Positions 8,014-27,002 of a stretch of 64,000 bases of DNA are shown here, in pieces. The translations under genes were made by a program, and so were the position numbers. This stretch comes from Candidatus Eiseniibacteriota bacterium (GTDB lineage: Bacteria > Orphanbacterota > Orphanbacteria > Orphanbacterales > Orphanbacteraceae), in assembly GCA_016930695.1 (NCBI GenBank), contig JAFGGD010000030.1:56321-120320 (forward strand). The letters are read 5' to 3'. Every line of letters begins with the position of its first letter. Position 1 is the stretch's first letter. The notes beneath the pieces are model-generated. The model was not told where the DNA came from and did not search any database. It worked only from the letters and a program-made list of their open reading frames with translations.

Positions 8014-9927
8014 ATGAAGCGATCGATCCTGTTTCTCGCCCTGGCCGCGCTGGCGACGGCGACTTTCGCGTACGCCGAATGTCCCGAACCGGTCGATACG
8101 GTCACGGTCCAGCAGATCCAGCTGGGTATGGGCGTGATCGTAAACGAGATTTATTACGTGGACAGCATCGTCGTCACCGGTCTCGGCGAGGCCGGCTTCT
8201 ACGCCCAGGAGCTGGAAGACACGGGAAGCGCTTTCTCCGGCATCTACGTGTATACCGGCGCCGAGCCGACCGACTACAGCCGCGGCGATCTGGTGAACGT
8301 GATCGGCACACTGCAGGAGTACTTCGAATGGACCGAACTCCGGGTCACGAGCGATTACTACGGGTGCGTTTTCATCATCGGCACCGCCGATGTGCCCGTG
8401 CCGGCGATGGTCACCTGCTGCGACATCAACGACTCGGTGAACGTGGAGGCGGAGAAGTGGGAGAGCGTTCTCGTGCAGGTCGATTCGGTCCGCGTGACGA
8501 ATGATAATTACTCCCAATACGGAGAGTGGACGGTCGTGGAGTTCGACGGCGACGCCGGTTGCGCCGCCCAGGAAACGCTCATTTGCGACGACGAGATGCT
8601 TCAGCCGGTCGCCGTGCCGGACAGCGGCACGCATCTCCAAGGCATCATCGGCTGCATCTCCTACAACTTCGACTTCTTCAAGCTGAACCCGCGGAACAAC
8701 GCCGACCTCCTTTACATCGGCCTGCCGCCGGCGCCGAACACCCGCTTCTGCTATCCCATCGACAACAGCCATCTCGGCGTCGCCTTCGACAAGCAGTTGG
8801 ACGAGGTTTCCGCGGAGAACGCCAGCAACTACTACATCGCGGAGTTCGACATCACCATCTCCTCCGCGCAGATGCAGGACGACTCCCTCACGGTGATCCT
8901 CACCACGAGCGACATGTCCGGCTTCACCGGGAGCGCCTTCCGCAGCCTGGTGGTGGAGAACGTGAAGAACGCCCAGGGCGTGCCGATGGCGGCCAACATC
9001 GAAGAGTTCATCCCCGGTGTGAAGAACTGCGAGTTCGCGCATCTCACCGACAGCGCCACCGTGGCCGGGCGTCCCTTCGCCATCGGCGCCGTGGTCACCG
9101 CTACGCCGACCGAGGCCTACGCGGATCGTTACATGTTCATCCAGGACCGGAACACCGCCTTCGGCTACGGCTTGATCCTTTACACCGGAAGCTACATCGA
9201 CGTGGACGAGGTCGGCATCGAGAGGGGCGACTCGGTCCTCGTCTCCGGCCTGGTTTCGCCCTACTTCGGCCTGATCGAGATGGGCGTGGTGGATTACATC
9301 GGCATCGTCACCCCGGGCCTCGCCGTTCCGGCGCCGGTCGTGGTTTCCGTCGCCACCGCCCGCACCGATCCTTACGAGGGGAAGCTGGTGCGCGTCGAGA
9401 ACGTGCGCGTGCGCACCGACTCGATCGGCTGGGGCGAGTGGTCCGTCGACAACGTGCTGGGCGACACTCTCTGCATCGACAACATCTTCAGCCCGGGCAT
9501 CGACAACTACGAGCCCGCGCCCGGCGACTCCTTCACCTTCATCGCCGGCCCGATGTGGTATGAGTACAGCCACCGGAAGATCAACCCACGCGACTACGAC
9601 GACATCTACATCGTCGGCGTCACCGACGTGGACGACGGCGCGCCGAAGTTCATGAACGCCCTGGATCAGAACCGGCCGAACCCGTTCAACCCGGTCACCA
9701 CGATCCAGTTCTCGCTCCAGAGGCCGACGGACGTGGCTCTCCGGATCTACGACGTTTCCGGCCGCGAGGTGCGGACGCTGACCAAGTCGAACCTCCAGGC
9801 GGGCCGGTACGAAGCGGTTTGGCACGGACAGAACAACGCCGGCCAGAACGTCTCCTCCGGCGTCTACTTCTACCGTCTCGAGGCGGGCGAATACACCGCC
9901 ACGCGCAAGATGGTGCTGATCCGCTAA
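8014..9927 (+). CDS. Secreted protein with two OB-fold-like modules, Ig-like domain and T9SS C-terminal sorting domain
   Basis: RBS-like GGAGGA ahead of the ATG. Signal peptide MKRSILFLALAALATATFAYA. The module (V/I)QQIQ...G..V.V.G(V/I)VT......GF..Q.....S.GI.VYTG.......RGD.V.V.G.L.E recurs at residues ~30-110 and ~360-440. It resembles the N-terminal OB-fold of ExeM/NucH-type extracellular nuclease precursors, but no catalytic domain was recognised. C-terminus ...GVYFYRLEAGEYTATRKMVLIR is a T9SS CTD. Confidence 0.6.
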   Translation: MKRSILFLALAALATATFAYAECPEPVDTVTVQQIQLGMGVIVNEIYYVDSIVVTGLGEAGFYAQELEDTGSAFSGIYVYTGAEPTDYSRGDLVNVIGTLQEYFEWTELRVTSDYYGCVFIIGTADVPVPAMVTCCDINDSVNVEAEKWESVLVQVDSVRVTNDNYSQYGEWTVVEFDGDAGCAAQETLICDDEMLQPVAVPDSGTHLQGIIGCISYNFDFFKLNPRNNADLLYIGLPPAPNTRFCYPIDNSHLGVAFDKQLDEVSAENASNYYIAEFDITISSAQMQDDSLTVILTTSDMSGFTGSAFRSLVVENVKNAQGVPMAANIEEFIPGVKNCEFAHLTDSATVAGRPFAIGAVVTATPTEAYADRYMFIQDRNTAFGYGLILYTGSYIDVDEVGIERGDSVLVSGLVSPYFGLIEMGVVDYIGIVTPGLAVPAPVVVSVATARTDPYEGKLVRVENVRVRTDSIGWGEWSVDNVLGDTLCIDNIFSPGIDNYEPAPGDSFTFIAGPMWYEYSHRKINPRDYDDIYIVGVTDVDDGAPKFMNALDQNRPNPFNPVTTIQFSLQRPTDVALRIYDVSGREVRTLTKSNLQAGRYEAVWHGQNNAGQNVSSGVYFYRLEAGEYTATRKMVLIR

Positions 9928-9980: not shown

Positions 9981-10118
9981 CTGTGCGGTTTTTGCACACG
10001 CCTCCACGCCGCTCCTCTTCGCCCGGACCTTCGGATTCCGCTTCTTTCCCTCTCCGCGTAACGCGCGCGGCGCGCTTCTGCGCGATTTTTGCGCGTTTCA
10101 GCCCGCCTGTGCCGTTTC

Positions 10119-10134
10119 GGCCGGCTTTTTGCAA
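10119..10134 (+). promoter_or_regulatory. Weak sigma-54-like -24/-12 element (CGGCCG-N5-TTGCA)
   Basis: GG and GC dinucleotides at correct spacing, about 90 nt upstream of the 10224 start. The -24 box deviates from TGGCAC at two positions. Confidence 0.2.
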
Positions 10135-10223
10135 TTTCATTGCGCGGGCGGTTCCCCGACCGTCCGGCCCACACGGGCCGATCCCCGGTCCGCCGAAAGA
10201 GTGAACGCAGAAGGGATGGAACC

Positions 10224-11180
10224 ATGATTAGAAAATGCGCCGCCGCGATCGCCACTCTTCTCATCGTCTCCGGCGCCTCCCGCGCCGCGGGGGAAGAGCG
10301 CGCCGGGATTCGCGACATACAGCAGGGAGCCTATCCCCCATACTCGTGGGTTCTCGTGGAGAGCGTCACCGTTACCGCGGTCGCGCCGGACGGTTTCTTC
10401 GCGGAGGAGGAGGGGGGAGGCCCGTGGAGCGGGATCTGGATCAACCGGCAGAAGACCCCCGCGGTTTCCGTCGGCGACCGGGTGCGCGTCCGGGGCTACT
10501 ACGCGGAGATCCGCGGTCTCTCCCTGGTCAGCGCGACCGATGCGCTGTGGGGCTCTGTGGAATGGATCGACCGCGCGCGATCCGCCCCGGCCGCGGAGAA
10601 AATCGCCGCGGGCGATGTGGGGGAACCCTACGAGGGGGTGCTCGTCTCCATCGGCGAGTTGATCGTCCTCGGCCCTGTCGGCGGCGGGGAGTGGCTCGCG
10701 CTCTCCTTCGGCGAAGGCGAGGCGGGAGACACGATCCGCGCGGGGGGGACGATGGCCTACACCATCCCCGAAACGGGGGACACCCTCGCCCTCCTCACGG
10801 GCCCGGTTCACACCGTCGACGGCGCCTATCGGATCGAGCCGCGCAATGACGACGATATCGTGTTGATGGAGGAAGCGACCGGCGCCGCCGGCGGCGCGCC
10901 CGCCCGCTTCCGTTTGTACGGCAACCAACCGAATCCGTTCAATCCATCCACCCACATCGCCTTCGATCTCCCCGCGGAAGGGAGGACGAGGGCGGACGTT
11001 TACGATCTATCCGGCCGCCTGGTCCGCGTCCTGTCGGACCGCACCCTTTCCGCCGGATCGCACACGATCCGGTGGGACGGCACGGACGACCGGGGGAACG
11101 AAGTCTCTTCGGCTGTTTACTTCTGCCGCGTCACTCACGGGGGGAACACCGAGGTGATCAAGATGTCGCTCGTCCGCTGA
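10224..11180 (+). CDS. Secreted single-module OB-fold-like protein with T9SS C-terminal sorting domain (paralog of 8014 gene)
   Basis: RBS-like GAAGGGA ahead of the ATG. Signal peptide MIRKCAAAIATLLIVSGASRAAG. GIRDIQQGAYPPYSWVLVESVTVTAV...GFFAEEE...SGIWINRQ...VGDRVRVRGYYAEIRG matches the module of the 8014 protein. C-terminus ...SAVYFCRVTHGGNTEVIKMSLVR is a T9SS CTD. The upstream extension to 10089 was rejected. Confidence 0.55.
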   Translation: MIRKCAAAIATLLIVSGASRAAGEERAGIRDIQQGAYPPYSWVLVESVTVTAVAPDGFFAEEEGGGPWSGIWINRQKTPAVSVGDRVRVRGYYAEIRGLSLVSATDALWGSVEWIDRARSAPAAEKIAAGDVGEPYEGVLVSIGELIVLGPVGGGEWLALSFGEGEAGDTIRAGGTMAYTIPETGDTLALLTGPVHTVDGAYRIEPRNDDDIVLMEEATGAAGGAPARFRLYGNQPNPFNPSTHIAFDLPAEGRTRADVYDLSGRLVRVLSDRTLSAGSHTIRWDGTDDRGNEVSSAVYFCRVTHGGNTEVIKMSLVR

Positions 11181-12196: not shown

Positions 12197-12224
12197 TTGA
12201 CCTCTTCGCCAGCGGCGTTATCCT
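12197..12224 (+). promoter_or_regulatory. Sigma-70-like promoter candidate (TTGACC-N16-TATCCT)
   Basis: Hexamers read directly in the divergent cdd/membrane-protein intergenic region, about 45 nt upstream of the 12267 ATG. Confidence 0.3.
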
Positions 12225-12266: not shown

Positions 12267-12908
12267 ATGGACTTCCTTCGCGTGTACTGGCCGTCCCTGA
12301 TCGGCCTGCTCTTAGTCCTTCTGCACCTGGGCGTTCTTCTCGGACGGTCCGGGGGCCGGACCACCGAGGGGCGCGGATCGGACCACGGAGACCGGGTCTT
12401 TTCGATCCTCGTCTCCCTTCTCCTCCTGATCCTCCTGTCGGGCGCCCAAGTCGCCAATCGGAACGCTTTCCGGGCGCTCGCCGAAAGGGAACGACGTAGC
12501 GACGGCGCCGAGGAAGCGCTCCAACGGGCGAATCAGGAATGGTCCCTTCGCCTCGCCCGCGCCGAGGGGGAACGCGATTCCCTCCACGCTGCCTTGGACG
12601 CGATCGAGGAAGGGGCGCGAGAGAAATTCCATTTCGAAGGCCTGGTTTTGAACGAGGAGGACGGCGGCCCGATTCGCGGCGCGCGGATCTCCCTCTTCCG
12701 GAGAGCGGGGGGGCGCACCGGTCGCGAGCGCGCGGTCGCGCGCGACCTGCTCACGGACGGGGAGGGACGGTTCCGCGCTGAAATTTCCCGCCTGCGCTCC
12801 GGCGAGGCGCTCCGCCTGGAGGTGACCGCCGCCGGTTTCGCCCCGGCGAAAGAGTGGGTCCCGCCATCCCTTCCCGAGGGACCCGTGACGATTCGTATGC
12901 GCCCCTGA
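12267..12908 (+). CDS. Membrane protein with coiled-coil and CarboxypepD_reg-like (transthyretin-fold) C-terminal domain
   Basis: RBS AGGAGAG ahead of the ATG. Two TM helices (LIGLLLVLLHLGVLLG and VFSILVSLLLLILLSGAQVA). C-terminal GLVLNEEDGGPIRGARISLF...GEGRFRAEI resembles carboxypeptidase-regulatory-like beta-sandwiches. Confidence 0.45.
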   Translation: MDFLRVYWPSLIGLLLVLLHLGVLLGRSGGRTTEGRGSDHGDRVFSILVSLLLLILLSGAQVANRNAFRALAERERRSDGAEEALQRANQEWSLRLARAEGERDSLHAALDAIEEGAREKFHFEGLVLNEEDGGPIRGARISLFRRAGGRTGRERAVARDLLTDGEGRFRAEISRLRSGEALRLEVTAAGFAPAKEWVPPSLPEGPVTIRMRP

Positions 12909-12983
12909 TTCCCGGTCCGCGCACCGAGGAAGGGTCTCGATCTCCCGCGCCCGCGCGGGCGGACCCCGCGAAACGGACGGCCC

Positions 12984-14513
12984 ATGAAACAGCGTTTCGA
13001 AGAGACGAACGACGCCCCCTTCGAGGCGATCCGCAAGGCGGTCCGTTTCGACGGCGCGGAGGAGGAAGCCCTGCGGGAGGTGGCGGCGGAGTTCGCTCCG
13101 GCGGTCGATCTCCACATCGAGGCATGGCTTCCCGATTGGCCCGACGAGGAACGCGCCCTCTACCGCGCCCTCTTTTTCGAGGGGCCACGCGATGGGGACT
13201 ACCCGGAGCGCCGGAAGAAGATCCGAGAGAGGGTCCTCGCGGCGGGAGGGAACGACGGCCGGGGGGCCGCGGTCTGGGCGGCGGGGCTGATCCGTCTGGC
13301 GGAGGAGCGGTTCGGCGGCGATCCGGTTCGGCTCGCCCGCGCCGTCGCGGCGATCGGGAGGGCCGCCCTGCTCGACAGGGAGGCGGCCCGCGCACCCTTC
13401 ACTCCTGAAGGACCGGGTCCGGGCGAGATCCTGAAGACGATCGGCCCCGGCTTCAGCCTCCCCGCGGAGGGGGAACTGGAAGAGGGGACCGATCCGGCGA
13501 TGGTCCTGGTCCTCTTCCGGGACGGGCGTTTCGCGGACGCCAACCAGACCGCCCTCGACGCGCTCGGCTTCCGCCGGGACGAGATTCGCCGCCTCACCAT
13601 ACGGAACGTGCTCCCCGAAGAGCAGCACGCGCGGGTGCGGATGCACCTGGAGAGGGTCGCCCGGAGCGGCCACGACCACGTGGCGGCGCACATCATCGAC
13701 CGGGAGGGGCAGGCGACCCACGTGGAGATGATCAGCAGCGCCATCTACGACGACGGGGGGCGCCTGCAGGGAACGCGCATCTTTCTCCGCGACCTGACCC
13801 ATCAGAAACGACTGGAGGAGGAGAAGCTCCGCTGGGAGCGTCTGGTCGCCGTGGGGAGCATGGCCGCCAAGGTCGCCCACGAGATCCGCAACCCTCTCTC
13901 GTCGATCTCGCTCAACGTGGAGCTTCTCATGGATCAGCTGGGCGGCCTCCCCGACGAGGACCGCGCCGAGGCGGGGCAACTGGTCAACTCGATCCTCTCC
14001 GAAATCGATCGCCTGACCAATGTGATCGAGGAGTACCTCAGTTTCGGCCGGCTCCCCAGCCCCTCTCTGGAGCCGGTGCGCGTCCGGGATTTCCTGCGCT
14101 CCGTCTCGGACTTCGTCCGGCCGGACCTCAGAAGCCACGGGATCGGCCTCACGATCGACGTGCTCCCCGGTACGCCGCGTCTCCTGGCCGACACGAGCCA
14201 GGCGAGGCAGTGCCTCCTCAACCTCTTCCGGAACGCCCAGGAGGCGATGAACGCCGGCGGCGAGATCCAGGTGACCGCGGGCCCGCGGGAGGGGAATGTG
14301 CTCGTCGAGGTCCGTGACACCGGCGCCGGCATCCCCCGGGAAAATCTCTCCAAGATCTTCGACCCCTTCTACACGACCAAGGACTTCGGGACCGGCCTCG
14401 GCCTCGCCTTCGTGCAGCAGGTGATGCGCGAACACGGCGGCCGGGTGGTCTGCCGGAGCCGCGAGGGGAAGGGGACCGTATTCGGTCTCTATTTCCCCGC
14501 CGACGAGGCCTGA
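12984..14513 (+). CDS. Cytoplasmic sensor histidine kinase (PAS + HisKA + HATPase_c)
   Basis: No TM segment. PAS-like segment MVLVLFRDGRFADANQTALDALGFRRDEIRRLTIRNVLPEE. H-box MAAKVAHEIRNPLSSISLNVELL. N, G1 and G2 boxes (LLNLFRNAQEAM, VRDTGAGIP, GTGLGLAFVQQVMREHGG). Confidence 0.85.
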   Translation: MKQRFEETNDAPFEAIRKAVRFDGAEEEALREVAAEFAPAVDLHIEAWLPDWPDEERALYRALFFEGPRDGDYPERRKKIRERVLAAGGNDGRGAAVWAAGLIRLAEERFGGDPVRLARAVAAIGRAALLDREAARAPFTPEGPGPGEILKTIGPGFSLPAEGELEEGTDPAMVLVLFRDGRFADANQTALDALGFRRDEIRRLTIRNVLPEEQHARVRMHLERVARSGHDHVAAHIIDREGQATHVEMISSAIYDDGGRLQGTRIFLRDLTHQKRLEEEKLRWERLVAVGSMAAKVAHEIRNPLSSISLNVELLMDQLGGLPDEDRAEAGQLVNSILSEIDRLTNVIEEYLSFGRLPSPSLEPVRVRDFLRSVSDFVRPDLRSHGIGLTIDVLPGTPRLLADTSQARQCLLNLFRNAQEAMNAGGEIQVTAGPREGNVLVEVRDTGAGIPRENLSKIFDPFYTTKDFGTGLGLAFVQQVMREHGGRVVCRSREGKGTVFGLYFPADEA

Positions 14514-14516
14514 TCC

Positions 14517-15731
14517 TTGGGCCGTCCGATCGCACTCGCGGGCGGCGGCCTCGCGGCTCACCTCCGCGCCGACCGTACGGTGATCGAGAGGACGAACGGC
14601 GCCGAGGCGGTCGCGTGGGACGCCGAGGGGCGCCTCCTCACCGACCAGGTCGGCCGGTGCGTCCTCAGGCGAGGGCTCTCCGGCCGTTTCCTACTCCGGG
14701 AACGCGCCGGGGCGGGCGGGCGGCCTCTCGATGCGGGAGAAGAAGGAGAGGTGATCGAGAGGACCCTCCGGATCGCCCGCGACGCGGCGGATCGCCTGGA
14801 GGGGAGTGACGCGGGGCCGGAGGAGAGGAGAGAACTCGTCGAACGCCTCGCGAGGATCCTCTCCCGGGACGCGGCGCGCTACGCCGAAGACGCGCGTCGT
14901 TTCAACCGCATCTGGAAACCGATTCCCATCCTCCCCCCGGATCGCGGCCTCGCCCTCGTGGCGCAGGGGACGGAGGGGTGTTCCTGGGGGCGCTGCCTCT
15001 TCTGCGGCCTCTATCCGGATGGGAGTTTCCGGGTGAAAGGGGAAGAGGAGTTCGCCCGTCACATTCGGGACGCCCTCTCCTTCCTCGGCCGCTCCGCGCT
15101 CACCCGGAACGCGCTCTTTTTCGGCGACGGCGATCCATTCGCCGCTCCGGACCGCCTGCTCCTCCCCTTGGTGGACCGCCTTCTCGCCGAGATGGACGCC
15201 GCCGCGCGGAGGGGCGATCCGGTCCCCCTCACCCGCGACCTGTACGCCTTCGCCCGCCTCTCCACGCTCGCCGGGCGCGACGCCGCCTCGCTCGCCGCCT
15301 ACGGCCGCCGCGGCTTCCGGCGGCTCTACATCGGCGTCGAGACGGGCGACCCGGAACTCTACGCGATCCTGCGCAAACCGGGCGACTCGGGCGAACTCCC
15401 CCGCGCGGTCCGCGCCGTACACGAGGCGGGAATGCGTGTGGGCCTGATCTTTCTCGCCGGGGTGGGAGGGAGGCGTTTCCGCGCAAGCCACCGCGCCGGA
15501 ACCATTCGGCTTTTAGAACGAGTGGAGCCGCGAGAAGGAGATCTGGTCTATCTCTCCCCGATCGTCGAGACGCCCGGTTCCGGCTACAGGATATGGATGG
15601 AGGAAGAGGGGATCGAGCCTCTCGGCGAAGATGAAATGGAGAAGGAGGCGAGGACGCTGATGGAGGGGATTCGCGCCCGATCGGGCCGGGCGAAGGTGGC
15701 GTTCTACCCCCTCCGCTCCTTCGTGTATTGA
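14517..15731 (+). CDS. Radical-SAM-like enzyme with non-canonical CX4CX2C cluster motif
   Basis: TTG start 4 nt after the kinase stop, with a long Arg/Ala-rich N-terminus, so the exact start is uncertain. ALVAQGTEGCSWGRCLFCG gives a CX4CX2C motif with an aromatic residue before the last Cys. A glycine-rich SAM-motif-like FFGDGDP lies ~35 aa later, and a GVQS-like ribose motif YIGVETGDPELYAILRK follows. Confidence 0.5.
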   Translation: MGRPIALAGGGLAAHLRADRTVIERTNGAEAVAWDAEGRLLTDQVGRCVLRRGLSGRFLLRERAGAGGRPLDAGEEGEVIERTLRIARDAADRLEGSDAGPEERRELVERLARILSRDAARYAEDARRFNRIWKPIPILPPDRGLALVAQGTEGCSWGRCLFCGLYPDGSFRVKGEEEFARHIRDALSFLGRSALTRNALFFGDGDPFAAPDRLLLPLVDRLLAEMDAAARRGDPVPLTRDLYAFARLSTLAGRDAASLAAYGRRGFRRLYIGVETGDPELYAILRKPGDSGELPRAVRAVHEAGMRVGLIFLAGVGGRRFRASHRAGTIRLLERVEPREGDLVYLSPIVETPGSGYRIWMEEEGIEPLGEDEMEKEARTLMEGIRARSGRAKVAFYPLRSFVY

Positions 15732-15786
15732 AACAGGGGGGAACCGGGCGCGGGAAATCGCTCGAAAGGCCGCTTCCAAACCCCGG

Positions 15787-15815
15787 TGGACAAGGGACTT
15801 CCCCCTTGATACACT
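15787..15815 (+). promoter_or_regulatory. Sigma-70-like promoter candidate (TGGACA-N17-TACACT)
   Basis: Hexamers read directly, about 50 nt upstream of the response-regulator start. Confidence 0.25.
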
Positions 15816-15863
15816 CCCTCGCGTGGGCTCCCCCCGGCCGGGAAATCGCCCCGGAAGGAGAGG

Positions 15864-17249
15864 ATGTTGGCGGAGAAAGAGACTAGGCGGAAGGCGGCGG
15901 TTCTCGTCATCGACGACGAAGCGGAGATCCGCCAGTCCCTCCAGAAACTGCTCACCAGGGAAGGGTACGAAGTCCACGCCGCCGCCGACGGCAAGGAGGC
16001 GATGAGCCTCGTCCGGACCCACCGTTTCCCCGTCGCCCTCTCCGACCTCCGCCTACCCGACGTGGACGGCCTCGACCTCCTGAAGATGCTCAAGATCGCT
16101 TCTCCCGAGACGGAAGTGGTGATGATCACCGGGTACGGCACCGTGGACGACGCGGTCCGGGCGATGAAGGACGGCGCCTACGACTTCATCCAGAAGCCGG
16201 TCAAGCGCCATCTGATCCTGAAGTCGGTGGAGAAAGCGCTGGAGAGAAGAGCGCTCGCCTCCGAGAACCGGGAGCTGCGCGCCCGGATTCGTTCCATGGA
16301 GAGAACGACCAGCCCGGTCAGCGCATCCCCGTCGATGCAGAAGGTCATCGAGATGGCGGAGCAGGTGGCGCCGAGCGCCGCGTCGGTGCTGATCCAGGGG
16401 GAGAGCGGGACCGGCAAGGAGGTGATCGCCGACATCATCCACGCCGCGAGCCTCCGCAAGGACGCCCCCTTCATCAAGGTGAACTGCGCCGCCATCCCGG
16501 AGACGCTCCTGGAGGCGGAACTCTTCGGCCATGAAAAGGGCTCCTTTACGGGCGCGGTCTCACGGCGAATCGGGCGCTTCGAACTGGCCGACGGGGGCAC
16601 CCTCTTCCTCGACGAAATCGGCGAGATGTCGCAAGCGACGCAGGTGAAGCTGCTCCGCGTGCTCCAGGAGGGTGAGTTCGAGAGGGTGGGGGGGGCGGAG
16701 ACTCTACGCGTGGACGTGCGGATTCTGGCCGCCACCAACGCCGACCTGGAGGAAGCGATCCGGTCGAGGCGCTTCCGCGAGGATCTCTACTACCGTCTGA
16801 ACGTGGTCACCATCCACATCCCTCCCCTCCGGGAACGGCCGGAGGACATCCCCCTTTTGGCGGAGCGCTTCATGCGCGCCTTCAACGAGAGGAACAACAA
16901 GGCGATCGAGGGGCTCTCGCCGGAGGTGATCGATCGCTTTCTCCAGTACGGCTGGCCCGGCAACGTACGTGAGCTGGAGAACGTGATCGAGAGGGCGGTC
17001 GTCCTCGGAAAAGGGAGGTTCGTCGAGCCCGAGGATCTTCCCCCGTCGCTCCATCGCCGGGAAGGGGTGGAGAGCGCCGTCCGCGTCCCCTTCGGCATGA
17101 CCATGGCGCAGGCGGAGCACCGGATCATCACCGAGACCCTTCGCCGCACCCGCGGAAACAAGGAGATGGCGGCCCGCCTCCTCGGCATCGCCGCACGAAC
17201 CATCTATCGAAAATTGGAGAACCCCCCGCCCCCGTTTCAGGCGGAATGA
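15864..17249 (+). CDS. Sigma-54-dependent response regulator (NtrC family: REC + AAA+ sigma-54 activator + HTH)
   Basis: Receiver domain [11 protein letters not shown]...[14 protein letters not shown]. Walker [15 protein letters not shown]-like box GSFTGA and [10 protein letters not shown]-like [11 protein letters not shown]-terminal Fis-type [25 protein letters not shown]. Confidence 0.9.
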
Positions 17250-17434
17250 TGATCCCCCTCCGGGGATTGCGCGAATCGGACCGGTCTGTTACGCTCCTTT
17301 CGTCTTGTCAAAATGTCCCGTCCGAGGTTTCGCGGCGGGTTCATCTTGTCAGTCCCCCCGGAAGCCCCGAAGGGAGGGCTGCCCTTAAAGCAATACAAAT
17401 CAACCGGTTGCATTCTTTCTTTCCTTCCGGTTGG

Positions 17435-17450
17435 TGGCATGAGCCTTGCG
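17435..17450 (+). promoter_or_regulatory. Sigma-54 promoter (TGGCAT-N5-TTGCG) upstream of kor operon
   Basis: -24 GG and -12 GC at canonical spacing, read directly. 89 nt upstream of the korD ATG and 186 nt downstream of the sigma-54 activator gene. Confidence 0.6.
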
Positions 17451-17538: not shown

Positions 17539-17799
17539 ATGGCGGAACAGAAAACCAAGAGCACCAAGGGGTGGATCGAGATCTTCGAGGAGTACTGCAA
17601 GGGCTGCTACCTCTGCGTGGAGGACTGTCCCCAGAAAGACATCGAGATCGCCGATCACCTGAACACCAAAGGATTTCACCCGGCCAAACCGATCGGGCTC
17701 CGATGCGTCGGCTGCGGGATCTGCTTCATGGCGTGTCCCGAACCGCGGGCGATCCGGGTGCACAAAACGGTCCCGGAGAAAAAAGGAGGGGATCGCTGA
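17539..17799 (+). CDS. korD: 2-oxoacid:ferredoxin oxidoreductase delta subunit (2x[4Fe-4S] ferredoxin)
   Basis: RBS GGAGGAAGGG. Two CxxCxxCxxxCP motifs ([12 protein letters not shown] and [12 protein letters not shown]) in an 86-aa protein. Confidence 0.8.
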
Positions 17800-18860
17800 T
17801 GGCCCGGAAACTGATGAAGGGGAACGTAGCGGTGGTCATGGGGGCGATCCTCGCGGACTGCCGCGCCTTCTTCGGATACCCGATCACGCCGGCGAGCGAG
17901 ATCACCGAGACGGCGGCGGACCTGTTCCCCCGCCTCGGCCGCGTCTTCCTGCAGGCGGAGAGCGAAGTGGCCGCGATCAACATGGTCTACGGCGCCGCGT
18001 CGACGGGAACCCGCACCATGACCGCCTCCTCTTCGCCGGGGATCAGCCTGAAGCAGGAAGGAATCTCTTACTGCGCCGGCTCGGAACTGCCGTGCGTGAT
18101 CGTCGACGTGGTGCGCGGCGGCCCGGGCTTGGGCAACATCGCGCCGGAACAGGCGGACTACTTCCAGATGGTCAAAGGGGGCGGCCACGGCAACTACAGG
18201 AACATCGTCCTCGCCCCCAACTGCGCCCAGGAGATGTGCGACTTCACCAAGCTCGCCTTCGACCTGGCCGATAAGTACCGCAACCCGGTGGTGATTCTCA
18301 CGGACGGTTTCATCGGGCAGATGATGGAGCCGGTGGAACTGGAATACGACCCGGTCACGGCGCCGAAGAAAGAGTGGTCCGTGGACGGAACGAGCGCCAC
18401 GCAGGGGAATCTGGTTTGCTCCATTCAGCTCGCCCCGGAGGAGCTGGAACAGCACGTGTACCATTTGTACGAGAAGTATGCAAAGGTCGAGGCGGCGGAG
18501 ATCCGCTTCGAGGAATACCTCACCGAAGACGCGGAGATCATCACCGTCGGATACGGCGTGATGTCCCGCATCCTCACGTCCGTGGTGGACGAGGCGCGCC
18601 GCCGGGGGATCAAGGCGGGCATGATCCGTCCCATCTCCCTTTGGCCCTTCCCGACGGAGATCATCCGGAAGTACGCCGACTCGGACCGGGTGAAGGAGTT
18701 CTTCGTGGGCGAGCTGGCGATGGGACAGATGGTGGAGGACGTCCGCCTCGCCGTGGAGGGCCGGAAGCCGGTCCGCCAGTTCCACCGCGTCGGCGGCATG
18801 GTGCCCGACGAGGCCGAGGTTCTGGAAGCCCTCATGGCGCCGAAGGGGGTGGCGAAGTGA
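17799..18860 (+). CDS. korA: 2-oxoacid:ferredoxin oxidoreductase alpha subunit
   Basis: TGATG overlap with the korD stop. N-terminus [35 protein letters not shown] is typical of POR/KOR alpha subunits. Confidence 0.85.
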
Positions 18861-20272
18861 CGGAAAAGATCATCGAGAAACCGCGAAGCATTCTGGACGA
18901 ATACAAATACAAACCGGGGGCGGACAAGACTTCGACCCACTACTGCCCCGGCTGCGGCCACGGCAACATCCACAAGCTGATCGGCATGGCCGTGGACGAG
19001 CTGGACGTGGCGGACCGCACCATCCTGATCAGCCCGGTCGGGTGCAGCGTTTTCGCCTACTACTACTTCAACTTCGGCAACATCCAGGTCCCCCACGGCC
19101 GGGCGCCGGCGGCGGCGACGGGCGCCAAACGAAGCCGTCCGGACTCGATCGTCATCTCCTACCAGGGGGACGGCGACCTGGCGGCCATCGGCGGGAACAA
19201 CATCCTGCAGGCGGCCAACCGCGGCGAGAACATCACCGTCTTTTTCGTGAACAACGCGATCTACGGGATGACCGGAGGCCAGATGGCCCCCACCACCCTC
19301 GTCGGACAGAGCACCTCCACCACCCCCCGGGGGCGCACGATCCGGAACGAGGGCTACCCGATCCGCGTGTGCGAGCTTCTCTCCTCGCTCGAGGCGCCGG
19401 CCTACCTCGAGAGGGTCGCCCTCATCGATCCCAAGCACGTCGCCAAGGCGCGCAAGGCGATCAAGAAGGCGATCCAGACTCAGGTCGAAGGGAAAGGTTT
19501 CTCGCTCGTGGAGATTCTCTCCCCCTGCCCGACGGGTTGGAAGATCACGCCGGTGCAGTCGCGCAAATGGATCGAAGAGACGATGCTTCCCATCTTCCCG
19601 CTGGGCGTCTACCGGGACAAGACCGGCGACGAACCCGGCTCATTCGACGAGCTTGATCCGGAACCGGTGGAGAGGGTGCTCGGCATCGGCGGCGACGACG
19701 GCGGCGATAAAGCGCCCCGGCAAAAACTGGACCGGGAGATCCGGATGAAGGTCGCCGGTTTCGGCGGCCAGGGAATCCTCTTCCTCGGCGAAGTGCTCGC
19801 GGACGCGGGTATGCACGCCGGCTATCACGTCACCTGGCTCCCTTCCTATGGACCGGAGATGCGGGGGGGAACGGCGAACTGCCAGGTCGTCGTCAGCGAA
19901 GAGCGGATCGGCGCGCCCCTGGTCTCGCGGCCGACCGTGCTGATCGCCATGAACCGGCCTTCCTTCGAGCGATTCACTCCCGACCTTCAGCCCGGGGGAA
20001 CGGTGATCTACGACTCCTCGTTGATCGAGAACGTGACCGTCCCGGAGGGGATCAAGGGATACGGCGTGCCGGCCACCAAGATCGCCGATGATCTGGGGAA
20101 CACCCGTGTGGCGAACGTGGTCGCGATGGGCGCCTACCTGGGGGTCACCGATCTCTTCTCGAGGGAGCAGGCCGAGAAGGCTCTCCGTCTGCACATCAAG
20201 AAGGAGAAGCTCATTCCCCTGAACCTGAAGGCGCTCGACGCCGGCATTCAGGCGGCCAAGGCGCTCCTGTAG
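18857..20272 (+). CDS. korB: 2-oxoacid:ferredoxin oxidoreductase beta subunit (TPP-binding) fused to gamma subunit
   Basis: GTG start overlapping the korA stop (GTGA). Beta-subunit hallmarks YCPGCGHG and GDGD...GGNN (TPP-binding). An in-frame C-terminal ~190 aa beginning [29 protein letters not shown] matches gamma subunits (GFGGQG...YGPEMRGG). Confidence 0.8.
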
Positions 20273-20312: not shown

Positions 20313-20675
20313 ATGGCTCGGAAAGCGCGAATCCTCGTGATCGAGGACGATCTAGGGCTCAGGGCGTCGCTCTGCGCCCTTTTTCGTCGCGCCCGTTACG
20401 ACCCTCTCGGCGTCTCCTCTCCGGAAGGGCTCCGTCTCCTCCGGAAGGGGCTGGACGTGGACTTGATCGTCGCGGATCTCTGGGACGGGCCGCCGGAGGG
20501 AAGGGCCCTCCTCCGCCTTCTCGACCGGACGGGCCGACGCGGCATGCTCCTTCGCCTTTCCGATCCTCGCGGCGGCGGCGGCGGGGAAGAGGAGCGTGAG
20601 GAGGATCTCTCCGTGACCGACAATATCCTCCACCGCGGCAGGCTGCTCGATCAGGTCGCACGCATGCTCGAATGA
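20313..20675 (+). CDS. Single-domain receiver-like protein (atypical/orphan REC)
   Basis: MARKARILVIEDDLGLR...DLIVADL keeps the acidic pocket residues, but the conserved T/S and K are not evident. The C-terminus is Gly/Glu-rich and low-complexity. Confidence 0.4.
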   Translation: MARKARILVIEDDLGLRASLCALFRRARYDPLGVSSPEGLRLLRKGLDVDLIVADLWDGPPEGRALLRLLDRTGRRGMLLRLSDPRGGGGGEEEREEDLSVTDNILHRGRLLDQVARMLE

Positions 20676-20818: not shown

Positions 20819-21106
20819 ATGGTCCGTCCAGAAGAGGACGGGAGAATCCTCTTTCGCTTCTCCTGTCCGGAAAGGCAGGGACCGGTTTTCCTGGTGGGGG
20901 ACTTCAACGGGTGGAGCGAGAGAAGACACCCGATGGAGCGTACCCCGGACGGCCACTGGCGAATCCGCATACCGCTTCCGCCCGGACGCTACGCCTTCAA
21001 GTACCTCTGCCGGGGAGACTGGTACAACGACCCGCAGGCGGACGCCTACCGCGAGAACGCCTGGGGGAGCGTCGACTCCCTGATCAGCATCCCCCGTTCG
21101 CGTTGA
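20819..21106 (+). CDS. Stand-alone CBM48 (glycogen-binding/early-set) domain protein
   Basis: 95 aa. RFSCPERQGPVFLVGDFNGWSERRHPMERTPDGHWRIRIPLPPGRYAFKY resembles the N-terminal CBM48 of isoamylases/branching enzymes and the AMPK-beta GBD. Confidence 0.55.
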   Translation: MVRPEEDGRILFRFSCPERQGPVFLVGDFNGWSERRHPMERTPDGHWRIRIPLPPGRYAFKYLCRGDWYNDPQADAYRENAWGSVDSLISIPRSR

Positions 21107-21349
21107 CCCTACCGTTTTCTTCCGGGAAAGGGCGGCCGTTCCTTTCCGCGCGCGGGTGAGGGGGAGCGCCGCGGTCCGTCCTTTCGAGGACCCGCGGGAC
21201 GATTGCCCGCCCGCGCCGCCGACACCGGTTTTTCAGACTTCCCGCCTCGCTTCTTGTCCCCGAACCGATCCTCCGGTAGCATTCCCTCGAATCCCGAGAG
21301 CAACTGAGCCCGGGCGGACGCCGCGGGTGGGCGAAAGAGGGAGCGGAAC

Positions 21350-23698
21350 ATGAGCCGAATCGACCGCTTGTACGAGGAGTCGGAACCGCATTTTCCCCGA
21401 TGGGAAACGATCAAGGATTGCGTCGATCAGTTCATTGATTTGATGCTCAATTATCGCCAGAGCGGCCACCCGGGGGGCTCGCGTTCCAAAACGCACGCCC
21501 TTGTGGCGACACTGCTCGGCGGTGTGATGCGCTGGGACATCCGCCGCCCCGACGCCCCCTTCGGCGATCGCTTCGTTCTGGTGGCCGGACACACCGTTCC
21601 CCTGGTCTACGCCACCCTGGCGGTGCTGAACGAGTCGCTGCGCGCCCGGCACCGCGAAACCGGCGACCCCCGCTTCCTCATCCGCAAGGAAGAGGAACGC
21701 GCCCTCTACGCGGAGCACCTGCTCGGCTTCCGCCGGAACGGAGGCCTATCGGGACACGCCGAGATGGAAGGGCGGACCCTCTTCCTCAAGTTCAACACCG
21801 GCCCATCCGGCCACGGCTCGCCGGCGGCGGCGGGCGAGGCGCTGGCGCTGAGGCGCGCCGGGGCGGCGGGCGTTCGCGTCTTCGCCTTCGAGGGGGAAGG
21901 GGGGCACTCCGCCGGTGCGATCCACGAAACCAAGAACTCCGCCTGGGGGCTCGGCCTGGACAATCTGATCTACGTGCTCGACTGGAACGACTTCGGGATC
22001 GACGACCACCGGGTCTCCTCGGTGATCGCCGGCGGACCGGAGGATTGGTTCGGCGCCTACGGGTGGAGGGTGCGCGGGGCGGAGGAAGGAAGCGCCTGGG
22101 GTCCCGTCACGCGGGCCCTTCTCGAGATCGTCCACGATCCGGATCCGGGAGGGCGGCCCGGCGCCGTTTGGATCCGCACCCGAAAGGGACGCGGCTACCT
22201 GAAATACGACAACAAATCCCACGGCTCGCCGCACGCGGCGAACTCGGAACTCTTCTGGGAGACGAAGCGGGAATTCGCCGAGAAGTACGGCGTTCGCTTC
22301 GAGGGTTTCGGCCGGCCCCTCCCGTCGGATCCGGAGGCGGTGCGGGAACAGGCGGCGGCCAACTACCAAATCGTGCTCGACGTCATCCGGAAGGACCGGG
22401 ATCTTCTCCACTACCTGACCGACCGCCTCGTGGAGATCGGCGAGTCGGTGCCGGACCGGCTCGAAGGCTTCCGCATCCCGGAGGAACGGAACCCGGCCGA
22501 GGACGAAACATTCTTCGATTGCCGCGCCTACCCGGAAACGATCTGGGCGAAGCCGGGCGAGAAGAAACCGAACCGGGCCGCCCTCGCCTCGTGGGGCGCC
22601 TGGATCAACTCGGCGAGCCGGGAACGATACGGGAGGCCCCTCTTCATCGCCTGCAGCGCCGACCTGGCCGATTCGACCAACATCTCCGGCTTCGGAAACG
22701 GGTGGGAAGGGTCGGAGGGATGGGGCTGGTACGAACGGGAGACGAACCCGGAGGGAGCCCTCCTCCCGCAGGAGATCACCGAGTTCACCAACGCGGGGAT
22801 CATGGCGGGACTGGCGTCGGTGAACTTCTCCCGGGAGCCGGAGAAGCGGTTCAACGGGTTCTGGGGGGCCTGCTCCACCTACGGTTCCTTTTCGTACCTC
22901 AAGTATGGGCCGATGCGTCTCTTCAGCCAGCTCGCGCAGGACTGCGACCTGCGGGTCGGCCGCGTCCTCTGGGTGGCGGGCCACTCCGGCCCGGAAACGG
23001 CGGACGATTCGCGCACCCATTTCGGCATCTTCGCCCCCGGCGTAACCGATCTCTTTCCGCGGGGCCGGGTGGTGAACCTCCATCCCTGGGAGTACAACGA
23101 GGTGCCAGTGGTGCTCGCCGAGGCCTTTCGCGGCGACTGGCCGATCGTGGTCCTTCATCTCACCCGCCCGCCCGTGGAAATCCCGGACCGGGAGGCGCTC
23201 GGGATGGCGCATCACTTCGAGGCGGCCCGCGGCGCCTACCTGATCCGGCCCTACCGGGAGGACAAGCCCCGGGGCGGCGTTCTTTTCGTGCAGGGGACGT
23301 CCACCACGGCCAATCTGATTCGCGTGTTGCCGGAGCTGGACCGAGAAGGTTTGAATGTAAAGATCGTGGCGGCGATCTCCCGGGAGCTGTTCGACCGGCA
23401 GCCGGAGCCTTACAGAAACGGCCTCGTTTCCGACGCGGACTGGATCGACTCGACGGTGATCACCAACCGCTCCCGCCTCCTCGCCGGACCCTGGTTGGCG
23501 CACCGGGACGCGGAGGCTTACGCCATATCCTCGGACTGGGACGACCGTTGGCGGACCGGAGGCACGTTGGAGGAGGTGTGCGAGGAGGCGCGCATCTCGC
23601 CGGAGTGGATCCTACGCGGGATCGAGCGTTTCGTCCGGGACCGGGAAAAGCGTCTCGGCCGGATCGCCGGCGCGCTGGCGAGGGCGCGAAAAGAGTGA
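21350..23698 (+). CDS. Transketolase-family TPP-dependent enzyme (unusually long, 782 aa)
   Basis: SGHPGGS and DRFVLVAGH align to the transketolase N-terminal motifs SGHPG and DRFVLSNGH. GEGGHSAG, NLIYVLDWNDFGIDD and FGAYGWRV align to the GDGCMMEG, NLI..DDNGISIDG and FEAYGWHV region. About 120 extra residues relative to classical Tkt. Confidence 0.7.
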   Translation: MSRIDRLYEESEPHFPRWETIKDCVDQFIDLMLNYRQSGHPGGSRSKTHALVATLLGGVMRWDIRRPDAPFGDRFVLVAGHTVPLVYATLAVLNESLRARHRETGDPRFLIRKEEERALYAEHLLGFRRNGGLSGHAEMEGRTLFLKFNTGPSGHGSPAAAGEALALRRAGAAGVRVFAFEGEGGHSAGAIHETKNSAWGLGLDNLIYVLDWNDFGIDDHRVSSVIAGGPEDWFGAYGWRVRGAEEGSAWGPVTRALLEIVHDPDPGGRPGAVWIRTRKGRGYLKYDNKSHGSPHAANSELFWETKREFAEKYGVRFEGFGRPLPSDPEAVREQAAANYQIVLDVIRKDRDLLHYLTDRLVEIGESVPDRLEGFRIPEERNPAEDETFFDCRAYPETIWAKPGEKKPNRAALASWGAWINSASRERYGRPLFIACSADLADSTNISGFGNGWEGSEGWGWYERETNPEGALLPQEITEFTNAGIMAGLASVNFSREPEKRFNGFWGACSTYGSFSYLKYGPMRLFSQLAQDCDLRVGRVLWVAGHSGPETADDSRTHFGIFAPGVTDLFPRGRVVNLHPWEYNEVPVVLAEAFRGDWPIVVLHLTRPPVEIPDREALGMAHHFEAARGAYLIRPYREDKPRGGVLFVQGTSTTANLIRVLPELDREGLNVKIVAAISRELFDRQPEPYRNGLVSDADWIDSTVITNRSRLLAGPWLAHRDAEAYAISSDWDDRWRTGGTLEEVCEEARISPEWILRGIERFVRDREKRLGRIAGALARARKE

Positions 23699-23780: not shown

Positions 23781-25532
23781 TCAGCGGATCAGCGTCATTT
23801 TGCGGACCACGCTCTCTCCGTTCGCATCGAGCCGGTAGAGATAGACGCCGGAAGCGACGGAGCGGCCGGCGTCCGTCGTGCCGTCCCAGACCTTCTCGTG
23901 ATCCCCCGCGCCGACCTCGCCCCGGAAGAGGGTTCGGACGATCCGTCCGGAGGGGTCGAGGACCGTCAACGCCACGCGGGAGGGATTCTCCACGCGGAAG
24001 GGAAGAACGGTGGCCGGGTTGAAGGGGTTCGGCCGGTTGGGAAGGAGAACGAAGGCGGCGGGCGGCGCGCCGGCGGCGATCGCCGTCGCCGTCTCGTGGA
24101 GGAAGGCGATGTTCGGGTCGTCCGGATCCCAGTTGGTGACCACCAGGTCGAGGTTCTCGGAATAGACGTAGTCGATCTCCACGTTCCCCGAACCGGCGGG
24201 CGGGGCGGAGGCGAGCGAGATCCATCCCTTGTCCAGGTCGTAGGCGTAGGCGCCGTAGGGGACGGGGTTCCCGTTCACCCGGATCGCGTCGATACGGCGG
24301 AGGGGGAAGTTTTCCGTATAAAACACCTTCGCCGCACCGTCGCCGCTCTTCGACTCACCGGTCACGGCGACGGAACCGAAGTTGTCCAGGTCCCCCCAGA
24401 CGCAGCTCTCCACCACGAGTCCTTTGGCCGGGTTGGGGAAGATGTAGGAGAAGGAGGCGGTCGGCTCCAGGGCGCCGCCGAGGTTCTCGTACACGACCGC
24501 ATGCTCCCACCAGCCTCCCGAGGCGAGGTCGAGGTCGCCGTCGCCGTCCGCGTCGGCGAGGGAGACGGCGGAGTAGTACTGCTTCGGGTCCGAACAGATC
24601 CAGGAGGCGTTCGCCTCCAGCGTGCCGCCGGTGTTGAAGTAAACGCGCACGTCCGACGCGCCGCCGAGCTGGCCGTTGTTCGCCACCGCCAGGTCGAGCA
24701 GACCGTCGCCGTTCACGTCCCCCCAATCGAGCTGGAGGGTGTTCTCCGTGTCCGCCGACTCCCAGAAGGGAACCGAATCGAGCCCCGCGCCGTTGTTCCG
24801 GTACACCCGGTTGGGGCCGAACTCGTTCGCCACCGCCAAGTCGAGGTCGCCGTCGCCGTCCAGGTCCCCCCACGCCACGTCGAGGGAGTAGTCCACCGGA
24901 CCGGTGGTCCAAACCGCGCCGGTCGTCAGCACGCCGCCGTCGTTCCTGTACAGCTTGCTCTTCTGCGGCACCGACGTGTAAGTCTCGCCGCAGGCGACCG
25001 CCAGGTCGAGGTCGCCGTCGCCGTCCGCGTCCCCCCACGCGAGATCGAAGCTGTTGTCCAGGTCGCCGGAAGTCCAAACCGGCAGCGAGGAGAAGGTTCC
25101 CCCCTGGTTCTCGTACACCTTGTCGTACTGGGGCGTCCCCGGATCGCCGAGCAGCGCGACGGCGAGATCCAGGTCGCCGTCGCCGTCCATGTCGCCCAAA
25201 TCGATGTGACAGTGGTAGCCCACGTCGGCGCTGCTCCAAGAGGCGGTTCTCTCGAGCATGCCGCCCAGGTTGTAGTACACGCGGTTCGGATTCCGAGCCA
25301 TGTCATTGCCGTTTCCGGTCACCAGATCGAGATAGCCGTCGCCATCCACATCGGCGAGAGCCCCGCCGGTGCTGTAGTCCCCGTCGATGGACCGCCAGTC
25401 CGGCGGTTTGATCAGGGGCACCACCCCACGCGCCGGGAGGGGTGCCGCGAGAAGGAGCGGCAGGGGAAGAAGGAGAAGGAGCGTTCGGAAAAAAGCGGGA
25501 AGGGATAGGGTTCGGATCCCGGCACCGGACAT
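23781..25532 (-). CDS. FG-GAP/VCBS-repeat beta-propeller protein with T9SS C-terminal sorting domain
   Basis: Signal peptide ...LLLLLPLPLLLAAPLPARG. Repeated DxDGDGxxDLxV calcium-binding repeats (DVDGDGYLDLVTG, DMDGDGDLDLAVA, DADGDGDLDLAVA, DLDGDGDLDLAVA, DVNGDGLLDLAVA, DADGDGDLDLASG). C-terminus ...SGVYLYRLDANGESVVRKMTLIR. The mirror ORF 23757-25508 (+) was rejected. Confidence 0.75.
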   Translation of the reverse strand: MSGAGIRTLSLPAFFRTLLLLLPLPLLLAAPLPARGVVPLIKPPDWRSIDGDYSTGGALADVDGDGYLDLVTGNGNDMARNPNRVYYNLGGMLERTASWSSADVGYHCHIDLGDMDGDGDLDLAVALLGDPGTPQYDKVYENQGGTFSSLPVWTSGDLDNSFDLAWGDADGDGDLDLAVACGETYTSVPQKSKLYRNDGGVLTTGAVWTTGPVDYSLDVAWGDLDGDGDLDLAVANEFGPNRVYRNNGAGLDSVPFWESADTENTLQLDWGDVNGDGLLDLAVANNGQLGGASDVRVYFNTGGTLEANASWICSDPKQYYSAVSLADADGDGDLDLASGGWWEHAVVYENLGGALEPTASFSYIFPNPAKGLVVESCVWGDLDNFGSVAVTGESKSGDGAAKVFYTENFPLRRIDAIRVNGNPVPYGAYAYDLDKGWISLASAPPAGSGNVEIDYVYSENLDLVVTNWDPDDPNIAFLHETATAIAAGAPPAAFVLLPNRPNPFNPATVLPFRVENPSRVALTVLDPSGRIVRTLFRGEVGAGDHEKVWDGTTDAGRSVASGVYLYRLDANGESVVRKMTLIR

Positions 25533-26986: not shown

Positions 26987-27002
26987 TGGCACCCCCCTTG
27001 CA
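26987..27002 (+). promoter_or_regulatory. Sigma-54 promoter (TGGCAC-N5-TTGCA), near-consensus
   Basis: Exact -24 TGGCAC and -12 TTGCA with a 5-nt spacer, read directly, 215 nt upstream of the 27218 start codon. Confidence 0.6.

Follow-up and report, generated by a model that had tools for sequence, protein, structure and literature searches.

Why is a gene for a radical S-adenosylmethionine (SAM) protein lodged between the genes for a sensor histidine kinase and a sigma-54 activator? The question is raised by a 64,000-nucleotide stretch of a Candidatus Eiseniibacteriota genome (assembly GCA_016930695.1, contig JAFGGD010000030.1, positions 56,321 to 120,320 of the forward strand; hereafter the window, with positions counted from its first letter). 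An earlier note, made from the letters of the window alone, had proposed that the enzyme makes, senses or modifies the signal, or is the first regulated target of the pathway. By comparing the locus with its orthologues and the protein with its family, we found that the locus is best read as a regulon of the AtoSC kind that governs 2-oxoacid and acyl-CoA metabolism and would be specific to Candidatus Eisenbacteria. Within it, we lean slightly towards the radical SAM protein being a co-transcribed passenger enzyme that has the function of its family and stands outside the core of the signalling pathway. Signal transduction probably does not depend on it.

The layout itself is as the earlier note had described it. 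Four open reading frames (ORFs) on the + strand, for a membrane protein, a PAS-containing histidine kinase, the radical SAM protein and an NtrC-family activator, lie in the order and at the positions that it gave, and they belong to a head-to-tail run of seven + strand genes at 12.2–20.3 kb in the ORF list of the window (Table 1). The other three encode a 2-oxoacid:ferredoxin oxidoreductase (OFOR) with its ferredoxin-like subunit. The packing was also described correctly. The kinase TGA ends at 14513 and, after 3 bases, the radical SAM gene starts with a TTG at 14517, 4 nt past the stop; the activator gene follows the radical SAM gene after a gap of 132 nt. The TTG start fits the N termini of relatives and of an identical 404-amino-acid protein in the public databases.

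The middle gene encodes a genuine radical SAM protein, as the earlier note had supposed, and SAM cleavage is its predicted activity. We make this assignment because of a Pfam match, a conserved cysteine triad and the fold. The protein passes PF04055 (40.4 bits, cut-off 29.5; E 4.6e-10, residues 152–318), and a confident AlphaFold2 model has the partial (beta/alpha)6 TIM-barrel of the superfamily, preceded in residues 1–135 by a MORN-like beta-meander and three helices. The cluster motif CX4CX2C (C155, C160 and C163) is 99–100% conserved in 159 family sequences, and its spacing, which is not the canonical CX3CX2C, was found in 143 of the 148 family sequences scanned. This spacing is a known radical SAM variant, reported for OxsB (PMC9204698) and for Megacluster-4-11 of RadicalSAM.org (PMC9477430). 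Around a third of the members (48/147) hold only three cysteines in total, and the family therefore has no auxiliary cluster. At the C terminus, Y397 and F402-V-Y404 are 90–98% conserved in the 159 family members, and the protein ends exactly at the last tyrosine; this conservation hints that the tail, which has low pLDDT in the AlphaFold2 model, is functional. A profile check thus placed the protein in the superfamily but in no named subfamily: no NCBIfam model matched at E<=0.01 (BioB, LipA, MiaB, HemN, PflA, the SPASM maturases and others), and a sequence search of the PDB returned no match at E<0.1, only noise.

These data also dispose of the idea that the middle ORF is non-functional, either the decaying remains of a gene or a frame left open by chance in DNA of high GC content, to which we give next to no credence. 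The GC content is 62–71% across the window and 68% around the locus, where many long shadow ORFs occur, and a TTG start might be expected of such an ORF. However, the ORF is not truncated: it can be aligned along its whole length with hundreds of relatives, and it retains every residue that is invariant in the family. A Shine–Dalgarno GAGG lies 8 nt 5′ of the TTG. The alignments, the invariant residues and the AlphaFold2 model effectively refute a non-functional ORF.

The evidence that the radical SAM gene may be dispensable comes from orthologous loci, which we fetched through homologues of the radical SAM protein and of the kinase, and which take three forms. Form A has the order kinase, radical SAM protein, activator, ferredoxin and OFOR, and is found in the window and in loci L171 and L172, whose kinases are 52–58% and whose radical SAM proteins are 47% identical to those of the window. 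In form B (L001, L007, L008 and L011), genes for a carboxyltransferase, a biotin carboxylase and a biotin carboxyl carrier protein (BCCP) stand between the radical SAM gene and the activator gene; for a further locus, L010, the contig context stops at the radical SAM gene. Form C (L173, from GCA_024276995.1, and L174) has the kinase, the three carboxylase genes, the activator, the ferredoxin and the OFOR and no radical SAM gene, and no member of the radical SAM family lies within 9 kb of either locus. The carboxylase resembles the propionyl/acyl-CoA type, with an mmdA-like carboxyltransferase (799 bits), an AccC-like biotin carboxylase and a BCCP. Neither its genes nor remnants of them were found anywhere in the 64-kb window. 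The activator leader of the window, CCGGAAGGAGAGG-ATG, is the carboxyltransferase leader in L001, which indicates that the three carboxylase genes were cleanly inserted or deleted. The interval between kinase and activator is thus a variable cargo slot, holding the radical SAM gene, the radical SAM gene with a biotin-dependent acyl-CoA carboxylase, or the carboxylase alone.

The form C loci keep the kinase, the activator, the regulatory DNA elements described below and the OFOR, all without the radical SAM gene. The radical SAM protein therefore looks like an optional passenger, and the proposal that it is integral to the signalling found no support in the comparison. Nor is there an obligate triad, since form B has three extra genes inside it. 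A check of synteny thus gave a divided answer: the kinase–radical SAM junction is tight wherever the radical SAM gene is present, but the triad is not constant among the orthologous loci. Neighbour-joining trees group the kinases and the OFOR alpha subunits as ((A,B),C) and the activators as (A,(B,C)); because these trees conflict, they do not fix the order in which the radical SAM and carboxylase genes were gained and lost. Under either tree, the gene order and phylogeny indicate one or more gains or losses of the radical SAM gene, with the regulatory core left whole throughout.

What the regulatory core controls is indicated by the DNA between the activator and ferredoxin genes. The sigma-54 motif TGGCAY-N5-TTGC has two matches in the window against 0.08 expected from shuffles. 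One of them, TGGCATGAGCCTTGC, starts 186 nt past the activator gene and 90 nt before the ferredoxin ATG; it recurs at the same position in L001, L007 and L011, and as a variant with ATGC at −12 in L173 and L174. By position and consensus, this site is a predicted sigma-54-dependent promoter. Two further blocks, TGTCA-N4-TGTCCCGG and a TGTCAG about 40 bp later, are kept in the window and in L001, L007, L011, L173 and L174. The first block, TGTCAAAATGTCCCG, has no other exact match in the 64-kb window and no other close one, and the pair are good candidates for activator-binding sites. The earlier proposal that the kinase and activator feed a sigma-54 promoter 0.2 kb downstream is thus strengthened by a site and blocks conserved across orthologous loci. 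Locus L171, of form A, is an exception: its spacer between activator and ferredoxin (13270–13600) is different and AT-richer, has no canonical TGGCA-N6-TTGC and contains TGTTCT-N5-AGAACA, an inverted repeat without mismatches. This lineage thus seems to have replaced its cis elements.

The second sigma-54 match in the window is of a different kind. TGGCACCCCCCTTGC at 26987–27001 (+), a perfect consensus site (TGGCACCCCCCTTGCA), lies about 230 nt 5′ of ORF 27218–30490 (1090 amino acids, with a sub-threshold C-terminal match of FlgD_ig type). The earlier note had this promoter, 9.7 kb downstream, answer to the same activator; the match exists, but a scan of the window found no copies there of the blocks that accompany the OFOR promoter, and we therefore do not link the match to this activator; presumably a different one controls it.

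The radical SAM gene itself does not appear to be under sigma-54 control. Each orthologous locus with a sigma-54 match has just that one, and no match lies 5′ of the kinase gene in any locus compared; the radical SAM gene is therefore not the regulated target, the other role that had been offered for it. The triad is probably not a single unit either. A promoter-like element after the radical SAM stop, TGGACA-17-TACACT, is common to the window, L001 and L008. L007 has nearly the same element (TGGACA...TAGACT) and L011 a weaker version of it; the promoter-like sequence at this place in L171 is a different one. The position of the element between the radical SAM gene and the next gene suggests two transcription units in place of the one that had been assumed. 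In form C, the kinase and carboxyltransferase genes overlap or lie 22 nt apart. For forms A and B we infer three likely units in all: the kinase and radical SAM genes, with the membrane-protein gene where it is present; the activator gene, preceded in form B by the carboxylase genes, from the promoter-like element; and the ferredoxin and OFOR genes from the sigma-54 promoter.

These results suggest the following scheme. The soluble PAS kinase, with its globin-like N terminus, would phosphorylate the NtrC-type activator, a pairing drawn from their genes; the activator would then bind the conserved TGTCA-containing blocks and switch on the sigma-54 promoter of the ferredoxin and VorB-type OFOR operon. 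A radical SAM gene from a family that otherwise stands alone would have landed behind the kinase gene in one Eisenbacteria lineage, where it would be translated in tandem with the kinase. The protein most likely keeps the chemistry of its family, with a single 4Fe-4S cluster, which binds SAM, and without an auxiliary one.

The distribution of the family fits this scheme. A word-indexed search returned 13 relatives and an exhaustive profile search 793 family clusters (50% identity, E<=1e-30), of which the top listed matches are about 400 amino acids long and, with few exceptions, aligned from nearly one end to the other. In species-representative genomes, a pattern scan picked out 462 stretches coding for a relative. 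The family occurs in Chloroflexota, Acidobacteriota, Bacillota, Deinococcota, Armatimonadota, Bacteroidota and other phyla, and its members are annotated just as 'radical SAM protein' or, in IMG, under the generic name 'YgiQ'. We searched the fetched family loci with sequences from the window: the core of the kinase, the AAA+ domain of the activator and the subunits of the OFOR. The arrangement of kinase, radical SAM protein and activator was seen in Eisenbacteria loci alone and in none of about 77 family loci from elsewhere. All-versus-all clustering of the flanking ORFs revealed no gene common across phyla; the clusters comprised scattered paralogous ABC ATPases, and HisF, a Tct transporter and DUF77/YkoF-like proteins at 5–6 loci each. 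The kinases give the same picture from the other side. A metagenome scan based on the kinase alignment relied on generic HisKA peptides, and the distant kinases that were its sole yield served as a control set; an activator gene was nearby in 48 of these 80 loci, and none of the 80 has this radical SAM gene.

Several observations weigh against a passenger. Where the radical SAM gene is present, its junction with the kinase gene is the tightest and most constant feature of the locus (a 4-nt overlap, abutting genes or a gap of 3–5 nt in all seven lineages that have it), and it persists where the carboxylase genes have been lost. The promoter-like element suggests that the kinase gene is transcribed with the radical SAM gene and not with that of its own response regulator; a kinase–radical SAM unit set apart from the activator is the layout expected of an accessory signalling protein, although the transcription units are predicted ones. 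In the kinase-linked clade, four positions that are 79–97% conserved in other family members have changed (Q143R; Y144 to G, I, T, V or S; N206D; A207P/L), which suggests a changed substrate or partner. Finally, the absence of a family member in form C holds within 9 kb of the locus, and one may be encoded elsewhere in those genomes.

These observations would be explained if the radical SAM protein had been co-opted as an accessory input to, or modifier of, the kinase. Its oxygen-labile 4Fe-4S cluster or the occupancy of its SAM site could gate the kinase; alternatively, the protein could modify the kinase post-translationally or produce a ligand that the PAS or the globin-like domain binds. 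The oxygen-sensitive OFOR would then be expressed according to redox or SAM status. The radical SAM protein and the sensor region of the kinase are also the fastest-evolving parts of the locus (47–52% identity, against 72–77% for the activator and OFOR alpha). Nevertheless, we consider such a role unlikely. The form C loci keep the entire regulatory core without the protein, the family members of other phyla show no link to signalling, and the kinase-linked clade keeps all the catalytic-looking invariants (the cysteine triad, H182, H325, D342, S347, Y397 and Y404), as an ordinary enzyme would. Other genes in these loci overlap as well, for example those for BCCP and activator and for the OFOR subunits, so that close packing does not single out this pair. 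Moreover, the whole 12-kb neighbourhood is collinear among relatives, including unrelated genes for a cytidine deaminase and for CBM48 and transketolase-like proteins, so that adjacency to the kinase gene is weak evidence of a functional link. The more particular proposal, that a captured enzyme diverged near its active site (Q143R, Y144X and N206D) and is now an Fe-S/SAM-dependent input to or modifier of the kinase, is a shade more doubtful still.

Another possibility is that the radical SAM protein belongs to the regulated metabolism, as a pathway enzyme or as a factor that serves the OFOR or the acyl-CoA branch in maturation or repair. In every Eisenbacteria locus its gene lies 1.5–6 kb 5′ of the OFOR operon, and in form B it is directly 5′ of the carboxylase genes. 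In an Acidobacteriota metagenome-assembled genome (L029, 5125–9262), genes for OFOR alpha, beta and gamma follow a relative on the same strand about 150 nt later; this OFOR alpha is 50% identical to that of the window, and the case is the sole one of its kind among the 77 loci from outside Eisenbacteria. At another locus (L028), an OFOR adjoins the relative on the opposite strand. However, an OFOR within 8 kb was found in 3 of the 77 loci against 0 of the 80 controls, which is not significant. Form C has both the OFOR and the carboxylase without the radical SAM gene, and that gene does not stand behind the sigma-54 promoter. We know of no radical SAM partner that OFORs or biotin carboxylases require. 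We therefore regard a metabolic partnership as improbable, and the passenger enzyme as the reading to which the loci, for now, give the edge.

The two signalling proteins are well defined. The kinase has HisKA (PF00512, 55.7 bits) and HATPase_c (PF02518, 92.9 bits) domains, one PAS domain and an H-box, HEIRNPL, that is invariant in an alignment of the orthologues. It lacks any hydrophobic segment (KD19 maximum 0.83) and is therefore soluble, in line with the cytoplasmic PAS kinase of the earlier note. Among NCBIfam models AtoS fits it best, but the score of 240 bits is below the equivalog cut-off of 646, so it is not an AtoS equivalog. The N-terminal region (12984–13490, about 170 amino acids) is globin-like, degenerate and shortened compared with the orthologues; Protoglobin scores 12.3 bits in it (E 0.17, below the cut-off of 25), which does not qualify the protein as globin-coupled, and scores above the Pfam threshold in the kinases of L001 (46 bits) and L007 (36 bits). 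By eye, the alignment shows no conserved histidine at the expected proximal position of the globin-like region, which would suggest a heme-free sensor. The activator has the domains of the NtrC family (PF00072, PF00158 at 250 bits, PF25601 and PF02954), with a GSFTGA loop in the AAA+ domain and a Fis-type helix-turn-helix (HTH). AtoC is its best NCBIfam match, at 487 bits and below the cut-off of 714, so this protein too is not an equivalog.

Table 1 Genes and predicted regulatory elements of the locus in the window
Feature	Position	Strand	Evidence and remarks
Sigma-70-like promoter match, TTGACC-16-TATCCT	12197..12224	+	Consensus scan, 9/12 positions; weak; 5′ of the membrane-protein, kinase and radical SAM unit
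Membrane protein	ATG 12267..12908	+	KD19 maximum 2.45; PF13620 (CarboxypepD_reg) 25.8 bits, sub-threshold (cut-off 32.3)
Sensor histidine kinase, 509 amino acids	12984..14513	+	Pfam PAS_4, HisKA, HATPase_c
Radical SAM protein, 404 amino acids	TTG 14517..15731	+	Pfam PF04055, predicted fold
Promoter-like TGGACA-17-TACACT (with TG)	15787..15815	+	Consensus scan; recurs in relatives
NtrC-family sigma-54 activator	15864..17249	+	Response_reg, Sigma54_activat, AAA_lid_14, HTH_8
Upstream block 1, TGTCAAAATGTCCCG, candidate activator-binding site	17306..17320	+	Conserved in relatives
Upstream block 2, TGTCAG, about 40 bp past block 1	17347..17352	+	Intergenic alignment
Predicted sigma-54 promoter, TGGCATGAGCCTTGC	17435..17449	+	Consensus match, position conserved
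4Fe-4S ferredoxin-like OFOR delta subunit	17539..17799	+	Fer4 matches; delta-subunit models below cut-off
OFOR alpha subunit, VorB subfamily	17796..18860	+	POR_N, PFOR_II; NF005507 523 bits against a cut-off of 399
OFOR beta–gamma fusion (thiamine pyrophosphate-binding and POR gamma domains)	18857..20272	+	TPP_enzyme_C, POR; beta- and gamma-subunit models match

The membrane protein begins with hydrophobic segments that we read as two transmembrane helices, continues with a charged, helical, coiled-coil-looking stretch and ends in a part that resembles the CarboxypepD_reg beta-sandwich. Homologues (34% identity) lie 5′ of the kinase gene in L007 and L010, CarboxypepD_reg genes fill the same position in L173 and L174, and the gene is absent from it in L001 and L008. 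We considered and rejected a match to the radical SAM–lipoprotein pair TIGR04133/TIGR04134: the membrane protein reaches 16.3 bits against a cut-off of 39.8 for lipo_with_rSAM, a likeness at the level of the domain, and the radical SAM protein has no match.

On the other side of the locus, 3′ of the OFOR operon, a 120-amino-acid ORF at 20313–20675 (+) resembles a degenerate receiver (Response_reg E 0.12) and is 37% identical over 43 amino acids to the receiver domain of the activator. A terminator-like hairpin lies inside it at 20361–20380, and in L007 the space at this place is too small for such a gene; the ORF may be what is left of a gene, or it may span the operon terminator by chance. 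It is followed at 20819–23698 (+) by genes for a small carbohydrate-binding protein of the CBM48/AMPK type and for a 782-amino-acid protein with a weak Transketolase_N match. The pair is also 3′ of the OFOR operon in L007, and the CBM48 gene is there in L171. Large predicted secreted proteins with similar-looking C-terminal tails are encoded at 8014–9927 (+), 10089–11180 (+) and 23781–25532 (−). A FlgD_ig match is confirmed for the last of these alone, the other two being judged by their C-terminal sequence; equivalent genes in relatives give FlgD_ig or Por_Secre_tail matches, which are typical of FCB-group and Eisenbacteria genomes. An Rfam scan of 11.5–21.4 kb found no element, only one sub-threshold chance match.

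If the radical SAM protein is a passenger, what remains is an ordinary NtrC-type regulon with a clear target, the VorB-type OFOR, in an uncultured phylum. The family itself is worth keeping in view: a widespread group of radical SAM proteins of about 400 amino acids, with CX4CX2C spacing, a single cluster, a MORN-like N terminus, an invariant FVY end and no curated model. The loci with and without the radical SAM gene, and with and without the carboxylase, form a natural three-way comparison that bears on whether the protein influences kinase output. If it does, radical SAM and Fe-S chemistry would join the input mechanisms of two-component systems, with a radical SAM protein in a pathway that controls an oxygen-sensitive ferredoxin oxidoreductase. 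We found no relevant literature on operons that combine a radical SAM protein, a histidine kinase and sigma-54 control, and nothing helpful on ferredoxin oxidoreductases in Eisenbacteria.

Among known systems, the closest solved folds to the radical SAM protein are RimO/MiaB, MgmA, Elp3 and HemN, which share the partial TIM-barrel core, the cysteine triad after beta-1 and motifs like GGE and GxIxGxxE. Identity to them is only 12–15%, and the protein of the window has neither the UPF0004/TRAM, KAT and HemN C-terminal domains nor an auxiliary cluster. With OxsB it shares the CX4CX2C spacing but not the cobalamin-binding domain, and it is thus not OxsB-like; its likeness to Megacluster-4-11 is that same spacing. 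The kinase recalls the globin-coupled sensor histidine kinases. Its form B orthologues have a Protoglobin domain N-terminal to PAS, HisKA and HATPase, and the distant homologue at L175 has the same architecture with the activator gene directly 3′ of its own, whereas the corresponding region of the window kinase is shortened and scores 12 bits. The system as a whole is most like AtoS/AtoC of E. coli and NtrB/NtrC-type pairs. It shares with them a PAS-HisKA-HATPase kinase and a REC-AAA+-HTH_8 activator and, with AtoS/AtoC, a sigma-54 target promoter before genes of short-chain, 2-oxoacid or acyl-CoA metabolism. It differs from AtoS/AtoC in a soluble kinase with a globin-like N terminus in place of a membrane anchor, in a target that is an OFOR and not atoDAEB, in scores well under the equivalog cut-offs, and in kinase and activator genes that are parted by cargo.

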